From Candidatus Limnocylindrales bacterium (lineage in GTDB: Bacteria; Chloroflexota; Limnocylindria; Limnocylindrales; CSP1-4), in contig DASXVG010000141.1 in NCBI GenBank assembly GCA_036504355.1, positions 5,650 to 69,649 on the forward strand: 64,000 bases of DNA. The letters are read 5' to 3'. The first letter of the stretch is position 1. Each line of letters begins with the position of its first letter. Positions 1-12,745 of this stretch are shown piece after piece. The translations under genes were made by a program, and so were the position numbers. The notes beneath the pieces were generated by a model that saw only the letters and a list, made by a program, of their open reading frames with translations, was not told where the DNA came from and made no database searches.

Positions 1-265
1 GCGGGATCAGGAACGGATCTGCGATGTAGCCGCCCGTGATGCTCAGGACGACGATGCACCCGGCGGTCACCCAGTGCGTGAGCCGCACCGGGACCTGCCA
101 GACGTACAGGCGCACGCGCTCGTCGGGGCGGTCGATCTCGTGGGTGTCGTGGGTCTCGATCGCCGCGCCGGGCGTCGGCTCCGGCGAGGCCTGCGGGAGC
201 GGGAGCTGCGGGGCCGCAATCGCCTCGGCCATGGGCACCGCCACGGGCTCCTCGACGGCTGTCAT
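1..265 (-). CDS. hyaC: Ni/Fe-hydrogenase b-type cytochrome subunit, N-terminal part (runs off the window's left edge)
   Basis: Reverse translation gives MTAVEEPV...ERVRLYVWQVPVRLTHWVTAGCIVVLSITGGYIADPFLIP, the HyaC/HupC first-helix motif with the heme His. The ATG overlaps the large-subunit stop (ATGA). Confidence 0.88.
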   Translation of the reverse strand, partial: MTAVEEPVAVPMAEAIAAPQLPLPQASPEPTPGAAIETHDTHEIDRPDERVRLYVWQVPVRLTHWVTAGCIVVLSITGGYIADPFLIP

Positions 266-2031
266 CGGGTCCCCTCCGCCGCGTGGACGCGGATGTCGAA
301 CGGGCCCGTGCCGTCCGGATCGAATGCGTGGACGGCGCAGGTCGGGCAGGGGTTGAAGGAATGGACCACCCGCAGGACCTCGAGCGGCCGGGTTGGATCG
401 GCGACGGGCGTCCCGGCGAGCGCGGTCTCGAGCGGTCCTCGCGTGCCGAGCACGTCGCGCGGCGACAGGTTCCAGGTGGAGCCGTCGACGACCTGGTAGC
501 GCTCCACGACCTTGTTGGCGATGCCCACCCAGTGGGCGACGGACCCGCGCGGGCCCTCGCCGACCGACCAGCCGTCGGCGCCCTGGGGCCACGACTCCGG
601 GTCCCAGCTCGTGATGTCGGCGACGGACACGTCGCCGGTCGCCAGGCTCGACTTCAGCTCCCACACCCAGCTGTCGGCCCGCCTGATCACCGCCTGCGCC
701 TCCACGGCGCGGGCGAGCGTCCGGCCCAGCACGCTCGGCAGCACGTCGACGCCGCGACCGAGCGCGGTGAGCAGCTCGCCGAGCGGGGTCGTCAGCGCGT
801 CGCGGCCATCCGCGTGTGCGATCAGGACCCGGGCGAGCGGCCCCGTCTCCATCGGCTGGCCGTCGTATCGGGCGGCCTTGATCCAGGTGTAGCGGCCGTC
901 GGCCGACAGTTGGCCCAGCGGCAGCGGCGCATCGAACGCCGGCGTCGTCTGACCCTTCGCCGGGACCCGCAGGTCGGCGGCATCGACCTCGTCCCCATAC
1001 CACGCGTGGATCACGGACTCCCCGACGGCATCGGGATCGGCTCCGTTGACCCGGGCGAGGTTTCCGCCAACGAGACGGCCGGCCGGCAGGTAGCGCGGTC
1101 CGTCCAGCTCGTCGCTCTCCGGGAGGTCGCCCCAGGAGAGGTAGTTGCCCGGTCCCGCGCCGATGCTCCCCCACTCCCGGTAGGCCCCCGCGAGCAGGCG
1201 AACGTCCGGCAGGTACACCCCGTTGACGTACGCGGCCGCCGCGCCGATGGACGCGTCAAGGAGGGCGAGCCCGTCCGCGCTCAGCGGGTTGGGGGCGTTG
1301 CGGTCGGGGATCTCCGGGTGGCCCCGGTTGCTGCGGGCAGTGGGGCCGCCCCACGGCGGCGCGAGCGCCATCCCGCCGACGAGGTAGGTCTGCGGGTGCG
1401 GGTCCTTGCCGCCGAGCAGCGCGTGGATCCGCATGAGCTGGCGCTGCCAGTCGAGCGCCTCGACGGCGTGCGCAAGGAGCAGGAGGCTCTGCTCGGGGCT
1501 CAGCGCGTATGCCGGGTGCCCGGACCACGGGCTCGTGAACGGGCCCGGGCCCGACGCCGCCGAGGCGGCGAACCGGTCGCGGGCGGCGGTCATCGCGTCG
1601 GTCGTGGACGACGGCCAGTCCGAGATCGAGCGGCCGAGGCGCGCCGTCGCGGACGGATCCGCCTTGAGCGCCTGCGTGACGTCGACCCAGTCGGGCAGCC
1701 CCGCCTGGTAGAACGTCAGGACGTGGTCGCGGACGAGGCCGGTCGAGGCCAGCAGGTTGCGCAGGATCCGGGCGTTGGCCGGGATGCGCACGCGCAGCGC
1801 CCGCTCCACGGCACGCACGGACGCGAGCCCGTGGACGCCCGTGCACGTCCCGCAGATACGGTTCGCCAGGAGCCACACCTCGCGCGGATCGCGGCCGCGG
1901 AGCACGGTCTCGAGGCCGCGGAACATCGTGGCGGATGCCAGGGCGTCGGTCACGGCGCCGCCGTCGACGTCCACCTCGACCCGCAGCTGGCCGTTGACTC
2001 GGGTGACGGGATCCACGACCAGGCGGCTCAT
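262..2031 (-). CDS. hyaB: [NiFe]-hydrogenase large subunit, group 1-like, with atypical active-site residues
   Basis: L1 RICGTC, L2 NPCPTCAVH plus a C-terminal extension, FRGLE, PHPQ, GPRG..HW, WNLSPRD. Confidence 0.95.
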   Translation of the reverse strand: MSRLVVDPVTRVNGQLRVEVDVDGGAVTDALASATMFRGLETVLRGRDPREVWLLANRICGTCTGVHGLASVRAVERALRVRIPANARILRNLLASTGLVRDHVLTFYQAGLPDWVDVTQALKADPSATARLGRSISDWPSSTTDAMTAARDRFAASAASGPGPFTSPWSGHPAYALSPEQSLLLLAHAVEALDWQRQLMRIHALLGGKDPHPQTYLVGGMALAPPWGGPTARSNRGHPEIPDRNAPNPLSADGLALLDASIGAAAAYVNGVYLPDVRLLAGAYREWGSIGAGPGNYLSWGDLPESDELDGPRYLPAGRLVGGNLARVNGADPDAVGESVIHAWYGDEVDAADLRVPAKGQTTPAFDAPLPLGQLSADGRYTWIKAARYDGQPMETGPLARVLIAHADGRDALTTPLGELLTALGRGVDVLPSVLGRTLARAVEAQAVIRRADSWVWELKSSLATGDVSVADITSWDPESWPQGADGWSVGEGPRGSVAHWVGIANKVVERYQVVDGSTWNLSPRDVLGTRGPLETALAGTPVADPTRPLEVLRVVHSFNPCPTCAVHAFDPDGTGPFDIRVHAAEGTR

Positions 2032-3218
2032 GCGTCCGTCTCCGGCCCGGCGGGCGGCTGGTCGGGGGGCGCCACCTCGGCGGCGTCGACGCCGCCCGTC
2101 ACGACGGTCTCCGCGTCGCCAGCGAGATCGGCGTCTGCGGCGCGTCGTGCGACCCGCTCACGGTACTTCGAGCGCGTCGCCATCCCTGCCCCGTGCGCCA
2201 CGGCGACCGCGCCGATGCCGCCGACCAGCACCGCGCCGACCGTGTCGACGGTGAGGCTCGGGAAGAACGGCACCGGGGATCCGAGACGCCGGTAGGCCGG
2301 CGTGTACCCGTCCCAGAAGTTCGGCGCGAAGCAGCCCACGCACCCGTGGCCCGCCCTCACGTTCCAGCTCACGCCGGCGCCGTAGCGGACCGTCGGGCAG
2401 TTGCCCATCGTCTCCGGGCCCTTGCAGCCGACCTTGTACAGGCACCAGCCCTTCTGGGCGCCCTCGTCGCCCCACGCGAGCGCGAACTCCCCGAACTCGA
2501 AGTGCGGCCGCCGCTCGCACTGGTTGTGGATGAGCGACCCGTAGAACGCGAGCGGCCGGCCCATCATGTCGGCCGGCGGGAAGTCGCCGAACGTGACGTA
2601 GTGGACGATGGTCGCGGCCAGGTTGGCCGCGTTCACCGGGCAGCCGGGCAGCATCACGGTGCGCGAGTCGCCCGTGACGGACCGCACGCCCTCGGCATCG
2701 GTCGTCCCGCCGTTCGCTCCGGGTGCGCCGCCATCGAACGCGCACGAGCCGAGCGCGATCGTCACGATCGCGCCATCGCAGACCTCTCGAGCCACGTCGG
2801 CGAAGGGTCGACCGCCCACGAGGCACGACGACCCGCCACCGGCCTTGGGCACCGACCCCTCGATCACGGCGAGGTAGCCGTTCGGGAACCGCTCCATCGC
2901 CGACTGCATCGCGAGCCCCGCGTCGGCGCCCGTGGCCGTCATCAGGGTCTCGTGGTAGTCGATCGCGAGGACCTCGAGCAGGAGGTTCGCGGTCGTCGGG
3001 TCGGCGGCCCGGAGGAGCGCCTCGGTGTTGCCGCCGCATGCCTGGCCGCGGAGCCAGATCACCGGGATCCGGGGCGCCTGCTCCACGGCCCGGGCGATCG
3101 TCGGCCCGTACGCCGCAGGAAGGGCGAGCGCGGCCGCCATCGCGGAGGAGAACTTGAGGAAGGTGCGACGGGACATCCCGCGGCGCACGAGCGCTGCGTA
3201 CAGCCCATCCTCACCCAT
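2028..3218 (-). CDS. hyaA: [NiFe]-hydrogenase small subunit with Tat signal and C-terminal membrane anchor
   Basis: SRRTFLKF twin-arginine motif, CGGN, GSCA, PGCP, IHNQCERR, CLYKVGCKGP, NCP, GHGCVGC and a C-terminal hydrophobic helix. Confidence 0.95.
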   Translation of the reverse strand: MGEDGLYAALVRRGMSRRTFLKFSSAMAAALALPAAYGPTIARAVEQAPRIPVIWLRGQACGGNTEALLRAADPTTANLLLEVLAIDYHETLMTATGADAGLAMQSAMERFPNGYLAVIEGSVPKAGGGSSCLVGGRPFADVAREVCDGAIVTIALGSCAFDGGAPGANGGTTDAEGVRSVTGDSRTVMLPGCPVNAANLAATIVHYVTFGDFPPADMMGRPLAFYGSLIHNQCERRPHFEFGEFALAWGDEGAQKGWCLYKVGCKGPETMGNCPTVRYGAGVSWNVRAGHGCVGCFAPNFWDGYTPAYRRLGSPVPFFPSLTVDTVGAVLVGGIGAVAVAHGAGMATRSKYRERVARRAADADLAGDAETVVTGGVDAAEVAPPDQPPAGPETDA

Positions 3219-3496
3219 CGCGTCACCATGTGCGGCATGTCACGGTGGGCGGGTGCCGCGGGGGCCCCACATCGGCCGTGACGAGATCGGGGGACGCTGG
3301 TGACCATGATCGGCCACCCCCGGGGGTGCGCCACGGGCCATCCGTCGCTGGCGGGGGTGTCCCCGGGCACCGTCCGAGGGTGCGCTTGGGACCGGGTGGC
3401 CCTCCCTCCGGGCCTCCGCGACCGGGTCCGATGGCCCTCCGCGGGCGTGTCCTCGCCTGGACGGGGGCGGGTGCGGGCGGGTGCGGGATCCCGGCG

Positions 3497-3748
3497 TCAG
3501 TCGCGGGTGCGGTCGCGGTCCCCCGCCGGCGGGCGGTTCGCGAGCGCCTGCTTCGCGTTGAAGTCGATGAACGGGATCAGGAGCGGGACGGCACACAGGC
3601 CGGCCACGAGGAGCGGCAGGAACACGAGCAGGAGGCCGCCAGCGACGCTCGCGAAGCCAAGCTGGATGAGGATCGACCCGGTCAGCAGGTACGCGGCCAG
3701 ACCCACGGGTACTGCGAGCACGAGGAGGAGGATCCGGCCGATGGGCAT
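3497..3748 (-). CDS. Small hypothetical membrane protein (2 TM)
   Basis: MPIGRILLLVLAVPVGLAAYLL... has two long hydrophobic stretches and host-like codon usage. Confidence 0.65.
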   Translation of the reverse strand: MPIGRILLLVLAVPVGLAAYLLTGSILIQLGFASVAGGLLLVFLPLLVAGLCAVPLLIPFIDFNAKQALANRPPAGDRDRTRD

Positions 3749-3774
3749 GGGCCAAGGGTACCCGTCACGTCGGA

Positions 3775-3999
3775 TCAGCCGAACCAGGTCCGCGCGTCCT
3801 CCTCGGTGACCTCGGGCATCAGGAGCAGCGACCGAGTGGCATCGACGGTGAGCGACGTGCGGCGCTCCACCAGCGCCGCGATGCGGTCGGGGTCGTCGCG
3901 GCACCGGCGGAGCGCGGCGCGGTCGATGCGCGGCCACAGGGACAGGGCCCGGCGTTCGAGACGCACGGTGCCGGCCGGGAAGGGGTTCGGGATGCCCAT
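3775..3999 (-). CDS. Small hypothetical protein, possibly CsbD/YjbJ-like helical fold
   Basis: 74 aa; LWPRIDRAAL...DRIAALVERRT pattern; host-like codons. Confidence 0.55.
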   Translation of the reverse strand: MGIPNPFPAGTVRLERRALSLWPRIDRAALRRCRDDPDRIAALVERRTSLTVDATRSLLLMPEVTEEDARTWFG

Positions 4000-4084
4000 G
4001 CGTGCGACCTCCGCTACGTGCCCCGCATGGTCCTCCTGCGGCCGTTACCGTTCAAGCCCGCATTCGATAAAGACCGGTCAACAG

Positions 4085-4135
4085 TTGGCGTGGCGGCGCC
4101 TTCAGGCGCACTTGGCGTGGGGCGCCTTCAGGCGC
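4085..4135. repeat. Two-copy tandem repeat (about 25 bp), each copy carrying a GCGCC-TTCA-GGCGC hairpin
   Basis: ttggcgtggcggcgccttcaggcgc (4085-4109) and ttggcgtggggcgccttcaggcgc (4112-4135). Confidence 0.6.
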
Positions 4136-4517
4136 GCTTGCCGGTGTCGTCGGCTGCGCGCGACGCAGCCTCGCGGTAGCGGTTGTGGGCCTCAAGCTCG
4201 GTCACGTCCGCGACGGCGGAGTCCGACTCGGCATCCGCGGCATCGGCCACGGTCGCCGTGGCAACGACCCGCGCCGCCGCCGCGGTCCTGGCGGCCGACT
4301 CCTGGGCCAGGCTCGCGGCGGCCTGGGCGGCCTTCGCCGCCTCGGCGGTCGCATTGGCGGCGGCGACGGCCTCGCTCGCAGCGGCGACGGCCGCGTCGGC
4401 CGCCACCCTGCCCCGGCGGGCGACCGCCGCAGCCTGCTCGGCGGCCCGCCACTGGGCGAGCGCCTCGGCGGTCGTGGGAAGTCTCTCGCTGGACAATTCG
4501 TCCTCCATCGCAGGCAT
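4128..4517 (-). CDS. Ala-rich predicted coiled-coil hypothetical protein
   Basis: MPAMEDELSSERLPTTAEALAQWRAAEQAAA...; continuous Ala-rich helix. Confidence 0.7.
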   Translation of the reverse strand: MPAMEDELSSERLPTTAEALAQWRAAEQAAAVARRGRVAADAAVAAASEAVAAANATAEAAKAAQAAASLAQESAARTAAAARVVATATVADAADAESDSAVADVTELEAHNRYREAASRAADDTGKRA

Positions 4518-5791: not shown

Positions 5792-6289
5792 TCAGCCCGC
5801 GCGGAGCGGCTTGACCATCGTCTCTGCGACGCGGGCATAGCCCAGGCGCTCGTACAGGCGGCGGCCGCCCTCGTTGGGCGTCGCCACGTCCAGGTCGAGG
5901 ACATCGAGGCCCCGGTCACGGGCCCAGCGCTCCGCGGCCCGCATGAGCGCCGACCCGATCCCCTGCCCGCGCCAGCCCTCCAGCACGGCGATCCCGATCG
6001 ACGCGCTGGCGCGCGGCACCCGCATCGATCCCGGCGAGCGTCGTCGACCGCCGATCGCGTCGAGCTGGCCGACCACGACCCCGTCGACCTCCGCGACGAG
6101 GTGCAGGTCCTCCTCCTCGGCCGCCTCGAGCTCGGCGGCGAACCGGGCGTGCACGGCCGCACGCTCGGGGACGCGGTACTCGGCCGGGTCGAGCGCCGCG
6201 TGATGCCGCGCAAGCGACAGGTAGATCTCCGCGAGCGCGGGGATGTCGCCCGATCGCGTTGACCTGATGAGGAGCGTGTGGTCGGCCAT
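5792..6289 (-). CDS. GNAT family N-acetyltransferase
   Basis: IAVLEGWRGQGIGSALM motif A; RLYERLGY. Confidence 0.9.
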   Translation of the reverse strand: MADHTLLIRSTRSGDIPALAEIYLSLARHHAALDPAEYRVPERAAVHARFAAELEAAEEEDLHLVAEVDGVVVGQLDAIGGRRRSPGSMRVPRASASIGIAVLEGWRGQGIGSALMRAAERWARDRGLDVLDLDVATPNEGGRRLYERLGYARVAETMVKPLRAG

Positions 6290-6290
6290 C

Positions 6291-7799
6291 TCAGGCGGGC
6301 TGATTGTCGATCTGGGCACGCTGGAGCCGGCCTGAGAAGTCGACGTAGATCGCCTTCCACTCGGTGAACGTGTCGAGCGCGACGTGGCCCGCCTCGCGGT
6401 GCCCATTGCCGGTGTCCTTCCAGCCGCCGAACGGCAGGTGCGTCTCGGCGCCGGTCGTGCCGGCATTGATGTACACGATCCCCGTCTCGAAATCGCGCAT
6501 CGCCCGGAATGCCGTGTTGACGTCGCGCGTGAACACGCTCGCCGAGAGGCCGTACTTGACCTGGTTCGCGGCCGTCATCGCCTCGTCGTAGCCGTCGACC
6601 GGGATGACCGAGAGCACGGGCCCGAAGATCTCCTCCTGGGCGATCGTCGCCATCGGCTCGACCCCGTGGAAGATGGTGGGGGCGAAGAAGTGGCCGCGGG
6701 CCAGCTCGCCGTCCGTGGCCCGGACCCCGCCGATGACGAGCTCGCCCTCGCTGCGGCCAATCTCGACGTAGCGCTCGACCTTGTCCGCGGCAGGGGCGTT
6801 GACGAGCGGCCCCACGTCCACGGTCTCGTCGAGGCCCGAGCCGAGCTTGAGGTTGCGTGCGCGCGCCTCCAGTCGAGCGACGAGGTCGTCCGCCACGGCC
6901 CGGTCCACGATGACCCGCGAGCACGCCGTGCAGCGCTGGCCCGTCGTCCCGAACGCGGACCACAGGATCCCGTCCGTCGCGAGGTCGAGGTCGGCGTCCT
7001 TGAGCACCACGACGGCGTTCTTGCCGCCAAGCTCGAGGCTGAGGCGCTTGAGGCGGCGACCCGCGCGCTCCCCGATCGCCCTGCCCGTCGCGGAGCTACC
7101 GGTGAACGAGACGACGCGCACGTCGGGGTTGTCCACGATCGCGTTCCCGACGTCGCTTCCGGCGCCGGTCACCAGGTTGACGACTCCCGGCGGGAAGCCC
7201 GCCTCGTCGATGAGCTCGACGAGCAGCGTCGCGCACAGCGGCGAGTCGGAGCTGGGCTTGAACACGACGGTGTTGCCGGCGACGAGCGCCGGCATCATCT
7301 TCCAGCACGGGATCGCCATCGGGAAGTTCCAGGGCGTGACGATCCCGGCGATGCCCAGCGGCTGGCGGATGCTCATCGCCCACTTGTCGGGGAGCTCCGA
7401 GGGCACCGTGTCCCCCGACATCCGCCGTCCCTCGCCCGCCATGAGGAACGCGATGTCGATTCCCTCCTGGACATCACCGCGCGCCTCAGCGAGGACCTTG
7501 CCCATCTCGCGGGTCATCGCCCGGGCGAGGCGCTCCTTGTGCTGGGCCATCAGCGCGCCGAAGCGGTACAGGACCTCGCCGCGCTTGGGGGCGGGCGTCG
7601 CCTTCCATGCGGGGCTCGCGATGTCGGCGGCGCGGACGGCCATCGCGACGTCCGCCGGGGCCCCCGCCTGGAACCGCCCGACGACGTCGCGCGTGTCGGC
7701 CGGGTTGACGCTCTCGAAGGTGCCGCCGCCCACGGCGTCCACCCAGCGCCCGGCGATGAACAGCTGGTACGTGGTCGGGTCGGCGGCGACCTCGGTCAT
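6291..7799 (-). CDS. NAD(P)-dependent aldehyde dehydrogenase
   Basis: TPWNFP, FTGS, LELGGKN, GQRCTA (catalytic Cys), EEIFGPV, LPFGG. Confidence 0.96.
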   Translation of the reverse strand: MTEVAADPTTYQLFIAGRWVDAVGGGTFESVNPADTRDVVGRFQAGAPADVAMAVRAADIASPAWKATPAPKRGEVLYRFGALMAQHKERLARAMTREMGKVLAEARGDVQEGIDIAFLMAGEGRRMSGDTVPSELPDKWAMSIRQPLGIAGIVTPWNFPMAIPCWKMMPALVAGNTVVFKPSSDSPLCATLLVELIDEAGFPPGVVNLVTGAGSDVGNAIVDNPDVRVVSFTGSSATGRAIGERAGRRLKRLSLELGGKNAVVVLKDADLDLATDGILWSAFGTTGQRCTACSRVIVDRAVADDLVARLEARARNLKLGSGLDETVDVGPLVNAPAADKVERYVEIGRSEGELVIGGVRATDGELARGHFFAPTIFHGVEPMATIAQEEIFGPVLSVIPVDGYDEAMTAANQVKYGLSASVFTRDVNTAFRAMRDFETGIVYINAGTTGAETHLPFGGWKDTGNGHREAGHVALDTFTEWKAIYVDFSGRLQRAQIDNQPA

Positions 7800-7894
7800 C
7801 GGGCGGCTCCTCGGGCGTGCGGCGGCGGGCGGATTGCGGCCATACTCCGGGCACCGCGCCGGGCCGTCAAACCGGTCCCGCCAGCCATCGACCG

Positions 7895-8164
7895 ATGCCC
7901 GAGCCCGTCGTCTCCGCCCCGCTCACGATCATCGAGCCGGCCGTCCCGGCGGCACCGTCCCCGGGCGGCGCCATCGTGCCGGAGCCGGTGCGCGAGGCCG
8001 CGCGGCGGCTCCTTGCCGCCGACGGCCGGGAGTTCGTGCTCCAGCCGTGGCAGGTCGCGTGGCTCGTCGCCACGAGCGAGGGTCGCGAGGGCGTCGTTCC
8101 GCTCGGCTGCGGCGTCGGCAAGGGCTGGCTCCAGGCCCGCCTCGACGAGGTGCTCGAGGGCTGA
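7895..8164 (+). CDS. Small hypothetical protein resembling a helicase/terminase Q-motif plus Walker A fragment
   Basis: LQPWQ...GVVPLGCGVGKG; host-like codon usage. Confidence 0.5.
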   Translation: MPEPVVSAPLTIIEPAVPAAPSPGGAIVPEPVREAARRLLAADGREFVLQPWQVAWLVATSEGREGVVPLGCGVGKGWLQARLDEVLEG

Positions 8165-8177
8165 ACCGGCGGGCTGA

Positions 8178-8336
8178 TCAGGTGGGGTCGGCGCTCACGC
8201 GCAGTCGCTCGAGCAGCGCCTTGACCACCTCCAGCTCGTCGGCTTCGTCCTTGCCCAGGATCGAGCGCAGGAGGCGCAGGGCCGCGGTCACGACCGCACG
8301 CTCGTCGGGGGTCAGGTGGAGGATCGTCTTCGTCAT
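8178..8336 (-). CDS. Small hypothetical protein (52 aa)
   Basis: MTKTILHLTPDERAVVTAALRLLRSILGKDEADELEVVKALLERL; amphipathic helices, strong GC3. Confidence 0.65.
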   Translation of the reverse strand: MTKTILHLTPDERAVVTAALRLLRSILGKDEADELEVVKALLERLRVSADPT

Positions 8337-8453
8337 CGACGTCGCCTCGCAGATGGCTGCCACCCGGTGGTGATAGGGGCCGGCCGCATGGCCGGCGGGG
8401 CCGTGCCCCATCCTCCCGCGGCGCGATGCGCGCCGCCAGTGCCGCTGCGCCCG

Positions 8454-9692
8454 TCAGATCCGTTCGAACGCCATCGCGACCGAGCCGCCGCCGCCCAGGC
8501 ACAGCGTCGCGAGCCCGTACCGGCCGTTGCGACGCGCCAGCTCATGGAGCAGGGTCGCGACGATCCGCGCGCCGCTCGCCCCGATGGGGTGGCCGAGCGC
8601 GATCGCGCCGCCGTTGACGTTGACCTTCAACCAGTCGAAGCCCAGCTCGCGGCCGTCGGCGAGCGTCTGCGCCGCAAACGCCTCGTTGATCTCGATGAGG
8701 TCGAACGCGTCCGGCGAGAGCCCCGTCTTCGCCTCGAGGTTTCGGACACCGGTCACCGGCGCGAGGAACAGCCACCGGGGCGCCACCTCCGCCTGCGCGT
8801 ACCCGACGATCCGGGCCATCGGCGTCAGCCCGTACCGCTCCACGGCGCGCTCCGACACGACGACCGTGGCAGCCGCCCCATCGGTGATGCCCGGCGCGTT
8901 CCCCGCGGTGACGGTCCCGACCGTCGCGTCGCCCCGGTCCGCTCCATCCGGGAGCGGGAACACCGGCGCCAGCCGCGCCAGCGCCTCGATGGTCGTGTCG
9001 CGGCGCGGGCTCTCGTCGACGCTGACCACCGTCTCGCGGCCCTTCGAGTCGCGGATCGTGACCGGCGCCATTTCGGCGTCGAAGCGGCCGCCGTCAGTGG
9101 CGTCGACCGCCCGACGGTGGCTCTCGTACGCCAACGCGTCCTGGTCCTCGCGCGACACGTGGTCATGGATGGCGACGCGCTCGGCGTGGGTGCCCATGTG
9201 ACACCCCTCGATCGCGCACCACAGGCCGTCGAGCACCGCGCTGTCCTCCAGCGTTCCGTTGCCCAGGCGGTAGCCGAAGCGCGCCTTGCGCAGCAGGAAC
9301 GGCGCGTTGTTCATCGACTCCATGCCGCCCGCGACGTAGACCTCGCCGTCGCCGGCACGGATCGACGCCGCGGAGAACATGATCGCCTTGAGCCCCGAGC
9401 CGCAGACACGGTTGATGGTCGTGGCCGAGGTCGTGTCGGCCAGGCCCGCGCCCAGGAGCGCCTGGCGCGCCGGGGCCTGCCCCGCGCCGCCCTGCAGGAC
9501 CTGGCCCATGATGACCTCGTCGACCGGGGCGTCGGACGGGAGGCCGGATCGCTCGACGGCCGCCCGGATCGCGATTGCGCCGAGCTCGGTCGCCGCGACG
9601 GACGCCAGCGCGCCGCCGAACTTGCCGATGGGCGTCCGCGCCGCGCTGACGAGGTAGACGTTGCCGTTGGGTCCGGGTGCCTGCTGCTCCAT
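8454..9692 (-). CDS. Acetyl-CoA C-acyltransferase (thiolase)
   Basis: ARTPIGKFGG, NRVCGSG, GGMESM, EINEAFA, GHPIGASG, CLGGG. Confidence 0.96.
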   Translation of the reverse strand: MEQQAPGPNGNVYLVSAARTPIGKFGGALASVAATELGAIAIRAAVERSGLPSDAPVDEVIMGQVLQGGAGQAPARQALLGAGLADTTSATTINRVCGSGLKAIMFSAASIRAGDGEVYVAGGMESMNNAPFLLRKARFGYRLGNGTLEDSAVLDGLWCAIEGCHMGTHAERVAIHDHVSREDQDALAYESHRRAVDATDGGRFDAEMAPVTIRDSKGRETVVSVDESPRRDTTIEALARLAPVFPLPDGADRGDATVGTVTAGNAPGITDGAAATVVVSERAVERYGLTPMARIVGYAQAEVAPRWLFLAPVTGVRNLEAKTGLSPDAFDLIEINEAFAAQTLADGRELGFDWLKVNVNGGAIALGHPIGASGARIVATLLHELARRNGRYGLATLCLGGGGSVAMAFERI

Positions 9693-9713
9693 CGCCCGAA
9701 TGTACACCCCGCC

Positions 9714-10574
9714 TCAGCGCGGGTAGGCGTGGAACCCCTTGCCCGTCTTCTGGCCAAGGTTGCCGGCCTCCACGAGGTCCACGAGCACACGCGGCGGCGC
9801 GAACTGCGGCTCGCCGATCCCGTCCTCGAGCACGCGCATGATCCCGAGGCACACGTCGAGCCCGATGAAGTCCGCGAGCTCGAGCGGCCCCATCGGGTGG
9901 TTGAGCCCGACCTTTGCGCCCGTGTCGATGTCCTCGGCGGTCCCGAGCCCCTCCTGGTACGCCCGCATCGCCTCGGCCAGGAACGGCATCAGGATCCGGT
10001 TGACGATGAACCCGGGCCGGTCTGCGGAGACGATGACCTGCTTGCCGAGCTGCGCCGCGAGGCCGCGGATCTGCGCCTCGGTGGCGTCGGTCGTCGCCGT
10101 CCCGCGGATGAGCTCGATGAGCGGCATCACGGGGACCGGGCTGAAGAAGTGCATGCCGACGAACCGACCGCGCCGGCCCTCGCCCACCGCGGCCGCGAGC
10201 GTGTCGATGGCGATGGACGACGTGTTCGAGGCGAAGACCGCGTCGGCCGGCGCGATCCCGTCGAGCGCGGTCCACAGCCGGGTCTTGACGTCCACGTCCT
10301 CGAACACGGCCTCCACGACGAGGTCCGCGTCCGCGGCGTCGTCCAGGTCGGCCGTGCCCGTGAGCCGTGCCAGGATTGCCTCCCGCTCTCCGGCGGTCAC
10401 CTTCCCCTTCGCGACGGCGCGCTCCAGGTTGCCCGCGATCCGCGCGATGCCGGCCTCGGCACGCGCGAGGTCGGGCTCGTAGACCACGACCTCCTTGCCG
10501 ATGGCCGCGTGGACCTGGGCGATCCCGTGGCCCATGAGGCCGGCGCCCGCGACGAAGACGCGCTCGATGCTCAC
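9714..10574 (-). CDS. 3-hydroxybutyryl-CoA dehydrogenase
   Basis: GAGLMGHGIA, VEAVFE, SNTSS, GMHFFSPVP, PGFIVNR, HPMGP. Confidence 0.95.
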   Translation of the reverse strand: MSIERVFVAGAGLMGHGIAQVHAAIGKEVVVYEPDLARAEAGIARIAGNLERAVAKGKVTAGEREAILARLTGTADLDDAADADLVVEAVFEDVDVKTRLWTALDGIAPADAVFASNTSSIAIDTLAAAVGEGRRGRFVGMHFFSPVPVMPLIELIRGTATTDATEAQIRGLAAQLGKQVIVSADRPGFIVNRILMPFLAEAMRAYQEGLGTAEDIDTGAKVGLNHPMGPLELADFIGLDVCLGIMRVLEDGIGEPQFAPPRVLVDLVEAGNLGQKTGKGFHAYPR

Positions 10575-11566
10575 GGCTGCTCCTCCCGAAGGGCGGCCAG
10601 CAACCGGTCCGCGGCCGCGTACGGATCATCCTCGTGGGCCGCGACCGCGTCGATCGTGCCCGCGGTCGCCACGTCGAGTGGCGGGGTCGTCAGTCTGGCC
10701 CACAGCCGCTCCACCAGCACGGCTCGTAGCTGGGCGGCCGCTCGTGCCCGACGGGCCTCGCGGGTCGCGCCTTCCACGCCGGCGGCGCGGTGCCGGTCGA
10801 GTGCCGCAAGGAGCTCCGGGATCCCCTCCCCGGTCAGCGCCGTCGTGACGAGGACGTCGGGGCGCTTCGGGGCAGGCCGGTCGGGGTCGCGGTCCTTGCG
10901 CGCAACCGAGGGCACGAGCATCGCCCGCAGCTGGGCCGCGGTCCGCTGGGCCCCGGGCCGGTCGCCCTTGTTGACCACCACGAGGTCAGCCACCTCGAGC
11001 AGCCCGGCCTTGATCGCCTGGACCTCGTCCCCCATCTCGGGCGCCTCGAGGACGACGGTCGTGTCGGCGGCGGCGGCGACCTCGACCTCGCTCTGTCCCG
11101 TGCCCACGGTCTCGAGCAGCACGACGTCGAAGCCCGCGGCGTCGAGGACCGTGGCCGCGGACGTGGACGTGGCCGCGAGGCCGCCGGCATGGCCGCGCGA
11201 CGCCATCGACCGGATGAACACGCCGTCGTCGCTCGCGTACGACTGCATCCGGACCCGGTCACCCAGGAGCGCCCCGCCGGTGATCGGCGACGACGGGTCC
11301 ACGGCGACGACCGCGACGGTCCGTCCCGCGGCCCGCAGCTCCGCGATGAGCGCCGCCACGAGCGTGGACTTGCCCGCGCCCGGCGGCCCCGTGATCCCGA
11401 CCAGGTGGGCGGCCCCGGCGAGCGGATGGATCCGCCGCAGCGCGTGCTCGGCGACGGGGGTGTGGTTCTCGACGGCGGTCAGCAGCCGGGCAAGCGCGCG
11501 ACGGTCCCCGGACCGGGCGGCATCGCAGAGGGCGGCGGCCCGCTCGGCGGGCGTCTGGTCGGCCAT
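10571..11566 (-). CDS. meaB: Acyl-CoA mutase-associated GTPase/chaperone MeaB
   Basis: GITGPPGAGKST, AVDPSSP..GGALLGDRVRM, ETVGTGQSE, QAIKAG, NKGD. Confidence 0.95.
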   Translation of the reverse strand: MADQTPAERAAALCDAARSGDRRALARLLTAVENHTPVAEHALRRIHPLAGAAHLVGITGPPGAGKSTLVAALIAELRAAGRTVAVVAVDPSSPITGGALLGDRVRMQSYASDDGVFIRSMASRGHAGGLAATSTSAATVLDAAGFDVVLLETVGTGQSEVEVAAAADTTVVLEAPEMGDEVQAIKAGLLEVADLVVVNKGDRPGAQRTAAQLRAMLVPSVARKDRDPDRPAPKRPDVLVTTALTGEGIPELLAALDRHRAAGVEGATREARRARAAAQLRAVLVERLWARLTTPPLDVATAGTIDAVAAHEDDPYAAADRLLAALREEQP

Positions 11567-11573
11567 CCGGCCG

Positions 11574-11978
11574 CTACTCGCGCGGCGTCGCGTTGGCGCG
11601 GATGAAGTCGGCGACCTCGCGGATCGTCGTCCCGGGCCCGAACACGGCGGCGACCCCCGCCTCCTGGAGCGGCGCGATGTCGTCGTCCGGGATGATTCCG
11701 CCGACCGTCACGAGGACGTCGTCCAGGCCGCGTTCGCGGAGCTGGGCGCAGACGCGCGGCACGAGCGTCATGTGGGCGCCCGACAGGATCGACAGGCCCA
11801 CGACGTCCACGTCCTCCTGGAGCGCCGCGGTCACGATCATCTCGGGGGTCTGGCGGAGACCCGTGTAGACGACCTCGAAGCCTTCGTCCCGCAGGCCGCG
11901 TGCGAGGACCTTCGCCCCGCGGTCGTGGCCATCGAGGCCGGGCTTCGCGATCAGCACCTTGAGCGGTCGATCGGTCAT
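11574..11978 (-). CDS. Cobalamin-binding small subunit of acyl-CoA mutase (IcmB/MutB-C-like)
   Basis: [13 protein letters not shown] (DxHxxG), [19 protein letters not shown]. Confidence 0.95.
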
Positions 11979-12007
11979 GGCGGGATTGTAGGCCGCGGGG
12001 CGGCGCG

Positions 12008-12745
12008 TCAGGCGCCGGGGCCGGGGCGGCCGATGTGGGCGAAGAACTCCGCGCGGGTCTTGTCGTTGCGCCGGAACAGGCCGAGGACGGCGGCGGTGGT
12101 CATCGTGGTGCCGGGCTTGCGGATGCCGCGCATCGCGGCACACAGGTGCGTGGCATCGAGCACGACACCCACGCCGCGCGGCTCGAGCCGCTCCATGAGG
12201 AAGTCCGCCACCTGCTGCGTCATCCGCTCCTGGACCTGGAGCCGGCGCGCATACATCTCCACGACGCGCGGGATCTTCGACAGCCCGATGACGCGCCCGT
12301 TGGGCACGTAGGCGACGTGCGCGGCCCCGAAGAACGGCAGCAGGTGGTGCTCGCACAGCGAGTAGAACGGGATGTCCTTCACGACGACCATCTCGCTGTA
12401 GTCGACGTCGAAGATGGCCTTGTTGATGAGCCGCTCCGGGTCCACGTGGTAGCCGGCGGTCAGCTCGTGGTACATCCGGTGCACGCGCGCCGGCGTCGCC
12501 GCCAGTCCCTCGCGGGCCGGGTCCTCGCCGATCTCCGTGAGGATCTGGCGCACGGCCTCCTCGATCCCGCCCGTGGCCGGCGTCCGGCCGCGCCTGGACA
12601 GGCGAGCCGGGGACGCGATCTCGGCCGCGCTCGTGACGACGCCCTCGTAGCCGTCGTCGCCGATCTCGTTCTCGATCTCGTCGACGATCCGCCGGACGTC
12701 CTCCGGGAGGTCGCGTGTCTTCGGCTCGTCGGGACGGTCGCTCAT
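12008..12745 (-). CDS. folE: GTP cyclohydrolase I
   Basis: [43 protein letters not shown]. Confidence 0.96.

Follow-up and report, generated by a model that had tools for sequence, protein, structure and literature searches.

What kind of enzyme is built around a [NiFe]-hydrogenase small subunit that carries Asn at two positions of its electron relay? The question is raised by hupS, a gene near the start of a 64,000-nucleotide stretch of DNA from a Candidatus Limnocylindrales bacterium of the Chloroflexota (GenBank assembly GCA_036504355.1, contig DASXVG010000141.1, positions 5,650 to 69,649 of the forward strand; the whole stretch is hereafter the window). An earlier reading of the sequence (the original prediction) had pointed to one Asn at a ligand position of the proximal iron-sulfur cluster and another in place of the medial-cluster Pro, and had proposed an unusual relay with shifted potentials. 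Our analysis suggests that hupS probably supplies the electron-transfer subunit to an uptake [NiFe]-hydrogenase that is anchored in the membrane, faces the periplasm and works with relays retuned for both electrons and protons. Within the present sampling, its lineage is confined to metagenome-assembled genomes (MAGs) of Chloroflexota, more than 80 species in all. Judged by alignment, the proximal Asn is inherited from a wider group-1f-like family, and the medial Asn is derived and co-varies with changes in the large subunit.

The gene and the relevant parts of its product are listed here; E. coli residue numbers, here and throughout, are those of mature Hyd-1, for which E. coli HyaA was added to the alignment.

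2028..3218, minus strand: hupS, [NiFe]-hydrogenase small subunit; an intact open reading frame (ORF) of 396 amino acids (aa) matching PF01058, PF14720 and TIGR00391, with 272 bits to 1h2a_S.
3084..3218, minus strand: signal peptide region of the twin-arginine translocation (Tat) type, residues 1-45, with the motif SRRTFLK (PF10518, 25.2 bits, cut-off 22.7; TIGR01409, 20.9 bits, cut-off 16.7).
3027..3041, minus strand: proximal-cluster motif A60-C61-G62-G63-N64, equivalent in gap-free alignments to E. coli E16-C17-T18-C19-C20, with Asn for the second Cys ligand.
2742..2744, minus strand: C159 (GSC), proximal-cluster ligand, E. coli C115; invariant (59/59).
2640..2642, minus strand: C193 (PGCP), proximal-cluster ligand, E. 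coli C149; Cys in 56/59.
2424..2528, minus strand: distal-cluster set H231, C234, C259 and C265 (E. coli H187, C190, C215 and C221), invariant in the lineage.
2331..2399, minus strand: medial-cluster set C274, C293 and C296, with N286 (codon 2361-2363) aligned to the conserved Pro, E. coli P242.
2178..2252, minus strand: C-terminal hydrophobic membrane anchor, approximately residues 323-347; the alignment to R. eutropha HoxK extends through its anchor as far as residue 350.

The hupS product exceeds the curated cut-offs of all three families (PF01058, 70.7 bits against 27; PF14720, 100.5 against 27; TIGR00391 hydA, 359.6 against 179.5). Its N-terminus is kept across the lineage, and the pattern TxDxVG...H...GM in the anchor region is conserved within it. 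Contigs from an independent public DNA run showed 0 differences over positions 2427-3400 and 3 differences (places 436, 442 and 445) over positions 1-2456, leaving both Asn codons (N64 and N286) unchanged. Measured against the nearest related locus (L001, which shares 95% identity in the best tblastn segment and 89% across the small subunit as a whole), the ratio of nonsynonymous to synonymous substitution rates (dN/dS) was 0.16 in hupS and 0.11 in hupL, values which indicate that both hydrogenase genes are maintained by purifying selection.

Both substitutions hold up in HMMER alignments to solved small subunits, where ACGGN stands in place of ECTGC/ECTCC and SWN in place of SWP, as first described. 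At the proximal site, 'rgqACGGNteall' lies without gaps on 'hnaECTGCsesvl' of 1h2a_S (D. vulgaris) and on 'hglECTGC/ECTCC' of R. eutropha HoxK. At the medial site, SWNVRAGHGCVGC aligns without gaps onto NWPVDAGHPCIGC and SFPIQSGHGCIGC, which sets 'vSWNvraGHgCvGC' opposite 'tNWPvdaGHpCiGC' and 'tSFPiqsGHgCiGC'. The window's small subunit retains 10 of the 11 cluster ligands, the second proximal Cys being Asn64. Read from the sequence, the proximal cluster thus has three Cys plus Asn64 as its ligand set, the medial cluster three Cys, Asn286 standing at its 'fourth corner', and the distal cluster His plus three Cys; the distal set, the Tat signal and the anchor are as normal as the original prediction had them. 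A substitute fourth Cys for the proximal cluster, which that prediction had named as a possible refutation, was ruled out. The only further Cys residues are C132, which corresponds to E. coli Cys88, a residue that ligates no cluster in the established Hyd-1 structures, and C147, whose position is variable in the lineage (C33/A12/S9/I4).

The partner subunit departs further from the canonical enzyme. Its gene and the adjoining part of the operon read as follows.

262..2031, minus strand: hupL, [NiFe]-hydrogenase large subunit, 589 aa (PF00374, 529.9 bits), overlapping hupS by 4 nucleotides (nt); best solved relative 3myr_B, 460 bits.
1987..1995, minus strand: N13-G14-Q15 replacing E-G-H of the L0 motif (E. 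coli E28, H30), with the proton-gate Glu gone (alignment).
1843..1860, minus strand: RICGTC, with Ni ligands C60 and C63 (E. coli C76 and C79) and Thr for the intervening Val (alignment).
484..486, minus strand: D516 (E. coli V530), in a segment that reads VVDGSTWN instead of VVPTTWN; Asp in 51/51 lineage members, Val in E. coli and in three enzymes of the sister family described below.
328..354, minus strand: N560-P-C562-P-T-C565-A-V-H568, with the Ni ligands kept and the canopy Asp (E. coli D574) replaced by Asn (alignment).
265..327, minus strand: C-terminal extension, 21 residues beyond H568, which a maturation endopeptidase would be expected to cleave, judging from the sequence and from the HycI-family protease gene in the operon.
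1..265, minus strand: 5' part of a Ni/Fe-hydrogenase b-type cytochrome gene, which leaves the window and whose start is overlapped by hupL; the full product on the source contig has 277 aa and scores 89.2 bits to PF01292.

A [NiFe] heterodimer is indicated by C60, C63, C562 and C565, by the 21-aa extension and by the HycI-family gene (59.8 bits), and the Tat signal, the C-terminal anchor and a b-type cytochrome gene directly downstream are the marks of a group 1 membrane-bound uptake enzyme. The operon beyond the window was read on the source contig (JGI metagenome 3300035523, Ga0376481_000264, 112 kb) and runs hupS, hupL, cytochrome b, HycI/HupD-type protease, heptahaem cytochrome c. The last of these genes (L081:14326-15051, just past window position 1) encodes a 241-aa cytochrome c with an N-terminal membrane helix and seven CxxCH motifs, and its product exceeds the Pfam cut-offs for Cytochrome_C7, Cytochrom_c3_2 and Paired_CXXCH_1.

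In place of the L0 motif R-x-E-G-H, the window's large subunit reads RVNGQ. The proton-gate Glu that is missing here is thought to be essential in Desulfovibrio. The five Asn that had been counted across the two subunits are all present: N64 and N286 in the small subunit, and N13 (E28), N57 (E73) and N560 (D574) in the large. What seems to be the larger anomaly had gone unremarked, namely that ACGGN also drops Glu16 and Thr18 of the small subunit and that the partner lacks the proton-gate Glu throughout the lineage. Two further peculiarities of the large subunit were seen. Of the His-rich motif HxHxxHxxHxH that membrane-bound enzymes carry, one His is left (VRDHVLTFYQAGLPDW; window 1720-1765, residues 99-113), so that only the Asp-His pair of a proposed alternative proton route remains from this region. 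A lineage-specific insertion, LAPPWGGPTARSNRGHPEIPDRNAPNPLSADG (window ~1290-1390, residues ~215-246), has no counterpart in solved large subunits and recurs in P0122, a 49%-identical protein discussed below.

How far these changes extend was read from two collections. A scan of one genome per GTDB species gave 140 matching stretches, the best 80 of which serve as the lineage loci; 79 of these 80 bear titles of Chloroflexota/Chloroflexi lineages, among which Ca. Limnocylindrales/Limnocylindria (also Ellin6529 and Edaphomicrobia) is a frequent label. The exception, L054, is labelled Ca. Sulfomarinibacteraceae, and binning error or horizontal transfer is possible there. A protein search across 5.8 billion proteins returned more than 1000 relatives, from the best 120 of which (60-92% identical) residue spectra were also taken.

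Among 60 small subunits aligned from the genome loci, the C20 position is occupied by Asn (39), Asp (11) or Glu (10) and never by Cys, and the P242 position by Asn (45), Pro (11), Ala (2), Ser (1) or Thr (1). The 120 metagenome proteins behave alike, with N88/E15/D13 and no Cys at the proximal position and N96/P16/T7/S1 at the medial one. Position 16 is variable (A19/T18/D11/S6/G6), and position 18 is Gly in 50/60. The 53 large subunits aligned from the same loci carry Gly (44), Asn (7), Asp (1) or Ser (1) at the gate position and Glu in none; the invariant Asp is followed, at the P531 position, by Gly or Ala, most members have Thr for V78 between the N-terminal pair of Ni ligands, and the canopy position D574 reads A19/D19/N10. 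The residues of the alternative proton route are kept (R509 in 47/51, D118 in 49/53, H119 in 53/53 and E458 in 52/53). The heptahaem cytochrome gene follows the protease gene in 58 of the 59 lineage loci with enough downstream sequence.

The substitutions fall into two subtypes. Subtype 1, which includes the window, combines xCGG[N/D] and SWN in the small subunit with Q/S/N at position 30 and [N/A]PC at 574 in the large one; subtype 2 combines xC[G/A]GE and SWP with GGH and FDPC. Counted over approximately 40 loci having both subunits, medial Asn pairs with replacement of D574 by Ala or Asn in 27/31 and with replacement of H30 (mostly by Gln) in 29/32, and medial Pro pairs with Asp574 in 5/6 and with His30 in 6/6. 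This co-variation of small-subunit position 242 with large-subunit positions 574 and 30 supports the idea, voiced in the original prediction, that the two subunits co-evolved.

Some lineage members depart from the common pattern at the proximal site. In L032, L050 and L059, PGSP replaces PGCP (E. coli C149 to Ser) and Glu stands at position 20, which leaves two Cys at the cluster. GSCACDGG, with an extra Cys two residues past the C115 equivalent, occurs in L012, L015, L027, L028, L033, L035, L039, L040, L044, L045, L056 and L062, often alongside Asp at position 20, and this Cys could be an alternative ligand there; the window has Phe at the position.

Clustering of a protein library at 50% identity leaves the window's large subunit as the representative of a cluster of its own. 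P0122, with RVGGH, comes next among full-length proteins at 49% identity, and all other large subunits are approximately 40-43% identical and read RIEGH; the cluster names of these neighbours go no further than 'hydrogenase large subunit' from MAGs. P0122 ends exactly at the C-terminal His, without a protease-cleavable extension. A more distant large subunit of 529 aa, P0194, is also without the gate Glu (RAGGN), and together with P0122 it suggests that the loss of this residue may have occurred more than once.

The closest large subunits that retain the Glu are 569-575 aa long and come from Solirubrobacteraceae, Nitrolancea, Thermomicrobiales, other Chloroflexota and Acidobacteriia. Three such sister loci (L083-L085, from Nitrolancea sp., Acidobacteriia and Solirubrobacteraceae) have the order small subunit, large subunit, cytochrome b, protease, with DCAGN and SWP as their small-subunit motifs. 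When the small subunit from Acidobacteriia was used as the query, 119/119 scorable matches showed [D/E]CAGN and 116/116 had medial Pro (SWP/GWP). The missing proximal Cys does not exclude the hupS product from the small subunits, since the whole sister family shares this exception. By sequence, the family looks like group 1f. Asn or Asp has been reported for this proximal Cys in the group 1f enzymes of Roseiflexus, Geobacter and Frankia, and likewise in group 2a (Mohammadi et al. 2017, PMC5364354), and the group 1f subunits of Frankia are of comparable length (HupL3 ~573 aa, HupS3 410-420 aa; PMC11879354). Oxidation of H2 under aerobic conditions has been ascribed to group 1f, Acidobacterium ailaaui being one example, and its HydDB trait, the replacement of the proximal Cys by Asn or Asp, is present in the window as N64. 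The original prediction had regarded the proximal Asn as foreign to Tat-exported, cytochrome-b-linked group 1 enzymes, which the sister family and PMC5364354 contradict; the residue is common in ordinary group 1 enzymes, whereas SWN, listed with it as a peculiarity, finds no match in the sister family.

Among known systems, those nearest to the window are these sister loci and, from the literature, Frankia synton-3, Geobacter Hya and the Roseiflexus enzyme. The window and its group-1f-like sister share the Tat-type layout of small subunit, large subunit, cytochrome b and HycI, the proximal Asn, and similar subunit sizes. The sister, however, keeps RIEGH, VVPST, FDPC and the medial SWP and lacks the heptahaem cytochrome gene at all three loci; identity to the window's proteins is 42-44% for the small subunit and at most ~50% for the large.

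Other hydrogenase groups fit less well. The supernumerary Cys19 and Cys120 that define group 1d are both Gly in the window (ACGGN; GSCAFDGG), unlike E. coli Hyd-1, a group 1d enzyme with a six-Cys [4Fe-3S] proximal cluster. The natural residues of the window nonetheless mimic the Hyd-1 laboratory variants E28Q, D574N and P242C, and the best-scoring E. coli large-subunit chain was 5a4i_L, which has Asn at 574 ('hsfnpclac') and which we take to be the D574N variant. The best solved relative of the large subunit is the Hyn enzyme of Allochromatium vinosum and Thiocapsa roseopersicina (3MYR), which, unlike the window, has canonical ligands and the gate Glu. Hyn presumably belongs to group 1e, and it works with Isp proteins rather than cytochrome b.

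The actinobacterial-type hydrogenase of Cupriavidus necator (group 1h, 5AA5) has Asp and three Cys at the proximal cluster (PMC5364354), as do 11 lineage members with Asp at position 20, but it lacks a Tat signal, an anchor and cytochrome b, and its similarity to the window is weak (small subunit, 60 bits; large subunit, 87 bits). Group 1l, which has been described as this bacterial class's hydrogenase, is 1h-like, with transmembrane-protein genes between the subunits and no Tat signal; it was rejected, as was 1h, because hupS and hupL overlap by 4 nt and because of the weak similarity to 5AA5. Group 2a (cyanobacterial HupS; Huc of Mycobacterium smegmatis, 7UTD) shares the reported proximal Asn (PMC5364354), but its members are cytosolic, not Tat-exported and without cytochrome b. 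We rejected this placement given the window's Tat signal and cytochrome b and its score of only 87 bits to 7utd_B, as opposed to 250-270 for group 1 small subunits.

Several retained features argue for a matured, working NiFe enzyme: the Ni-ligand Cys, the equivalents of Arg509, Asp118 and His119, the C-terminal extension and its protease, the distal cluster, the anchor and cytochrome b. Within such an enzyme, the residue at position 20 (Asn64 in the window) probably still ligates the fourth Fe of a [4Fe-4S] proximal cluster. This position admits only Asn, Asp and Glu, all of them oxygen donors like the Asp of group 1h, which suggests a ligated fourth Fe. Asn286, by comparison, is less likely to ligate iron than to tune a [3Fe-4S] medial cluster, since position 242 also admits Pro, Ala, Ser and Thr, which suggests tuned surroundings of the cluster rather than Asn-ligated iron. 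In D. fructosovorans, exchange of this Pro for Cys converts the medial cluster to [4Fe-4S] and moves its potential from +65 to -250 mV (PMC4463661). Surveys list Asn among alternative ligands. Shifted cluster potentials in the window's enzyme are plausible.

The canonical proton exit would be lost in this lineage through the absence of large-subunit Glu28 and, in the window's subtype, also of small-subunit Glu16 and Thr18. Protons would probably leave by the retained Arg-Asp-His-Glu route, as suggested by the conservation of all four of its residues in the lineage. In the Hyn enzyme of T. roseopersicina, an E14Q variant keeps ~50% of in vitro activity, and Arg487-Asp103-His104-Glu436 are required (PMC3325256). 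The invariant Asp516 is a candidate helper that may compensate for the missing gate Glu. The electrons would be taken up by cytochrome b and quinone, by the dedicated heptahaem protein, or by both.

A number of points weigh against a working, simply retuned hydrogenase. Evans and colleagues reportedly found in 2018 that the gate Glu-to-Gln exchange in E. coli Hyd-1 leaves ~1% activity. The canopy Asp574 is lost as well and another Asp has appeared nearby, so the surroundings of the active site may be altered beyond retuning; this new Asp lies two residues from a Ser/Thr that we assume hydrogen-bonds a cyanide ligand of the Fe. No hyp genes adjoin the operon and none was found by motif search in the window, though with 64 kb covered this is uninformative. 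Evidence at the RNA level is weak: in a rice-paddy metatranscriptome we found short contigs 85-99% alike, but these are contigs only, from related sequences and with possible DNA carry-over. In D. fructosovorans, the gate Glu-to-Gln exchange is cited as abolishing activity (as quoted in PMC3325256). Finally, Huc, of group 2a, has [3Fe-4S] clusters at all three sites, with non-Cys 'fourth residues' and high-potential clusters (PMC10017518). If HucS has the proximal Asn described for group 2a (PMC5364354), Asn may by analogy signify a 3Fe proximal cluster and not an Asn-ligated 4Fe one.

A rival reading is a hydrogenase-derived complex that is no longer a normal H2 oxidiser and serves as a different redox module, for example one that is very slow or sensing, acts on another small substrate or runs electrons in another direction. 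We consider this unlikely. The gate Glu is absent from 53/53 large subunits, and gate mutants of model enzymes are nearly dead; H30, E73, V78, P531 and D574 are changed too, most of HxHxxHxxHxH is lost, Glu16 and Thr18 of the small subunit are replaced, a new invariant Asp sits in an active-site segment, and the heptahaem cytochrome is specific to the lineage and missing from the three sister loci. Yet none of the four Ni-ligand Cys has been lost, nor have the equivalents of Arg509, Asp118, His119 and Glu458; the presence of a protease gene and of a C-terminal extension implies that the NiFe site matures normally; the His/Cys3 set of the distal cluster and cytochrome b match those of respiratory enzymes; and the gate Glu is dispensable in the natural group 1e precedent.

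Another view, that this is an ordinary group 1f uptake hydrogenase whose substitutions have drifted without functional consequence, can draw on the universal proximal Asn of the canonical sister family and its report from group 1f, on the tolerance of the medial position for Asn, Pro, Ala, Ser and Thr, and on a gene order that matches the sister's. It appears improbable to us because the changes strike named functional residues, are fixed or nearly so across more than 50 species and co-vary between subunits; the additional conserved cytochrome gene, and a large subunit at most 50% identical to any Glu-containing relative, also speak against it. A decaying pseudogene or an assembly or sequencing artefact, for which nothing speaks but the unusual residues themselves, can practically be dismissed, being refuted by purifying selection, by the reproduction of the sequence in the independent DNA run and by the recurrence of the motifs in 80 genome loci and 120 metagenome proteins, quite apart from the intact ORFs that overlap in the manner of an operon. 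A working enzyme with retuned relays remains our preferred reading.

The proximal Asn by itself is already known for group 1f. None of the papers searched describes Asn at the medial position, the canopy change that co-varies with it, the absence of the gate Glu from the entire clade, the invariant Asp516 or the heptahaem partner; nor did a literature search bring up a paper on gate-Glu loss in group 1f, or searches on Limnocylindria/Ellin6529 hydrogenases any account of these features. More tentatively, the combination might mark a mechanistically distinct class of hydrogenase and not merely a 1f variant, one that has given up the gate Glu (and, in one subtype, Glu16 and Thr18), gained an invariant Asp beside the active-site segment, retuned or re-ligated two of its three Fe-S clusters with Asn and acquired a dedicated, membrane-anchored heptahaem outlet, with another proton route and possibly a different catalytic bias, O2 behaviour or substrate; this is possible but doubtful.

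Several residues that the textbook [NiFe] mechanism treats as universal (the gate Glu, the canopy Asp/Arg, the all-Cys proximal and Pro-capped medial clusters) are replaced here at once, in a co-ordinated way and under purifying selection, in more than 80 species of a soil class that is abundant and uncultured. An active enzyme would be nature's own test of other routes for protons and of how ligation by Asn, Asp or Glu sets cluster type and potential, and its heptahaem partner would suggest that electrons from H2 take a path not yet recognised in aerobic soils. Should the enzyme be inactive, capacity is overestimated wherever metagenomic surveys score such genes as H2 oxidisers.

Beyond the operon, three small genes (83, 74 and 126 aa) separate hupS from a Zn-peptidase gene (window 3497-4508, minus strand); they have no Pfam match, and one product is hydrophobic and one Ala-rich. 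Further upstream (window ~5800-12700, minus strand) is an acyl-CoA mutase-type cluster encoding an aldehyde dehydrogenase, a thiolase, a 3-hydroxyacyl-CoA dehydrogenase, a MeaB GTPase and a B12-binding domain protein, and the same set is found again beside the hydrogenase operon in L082.

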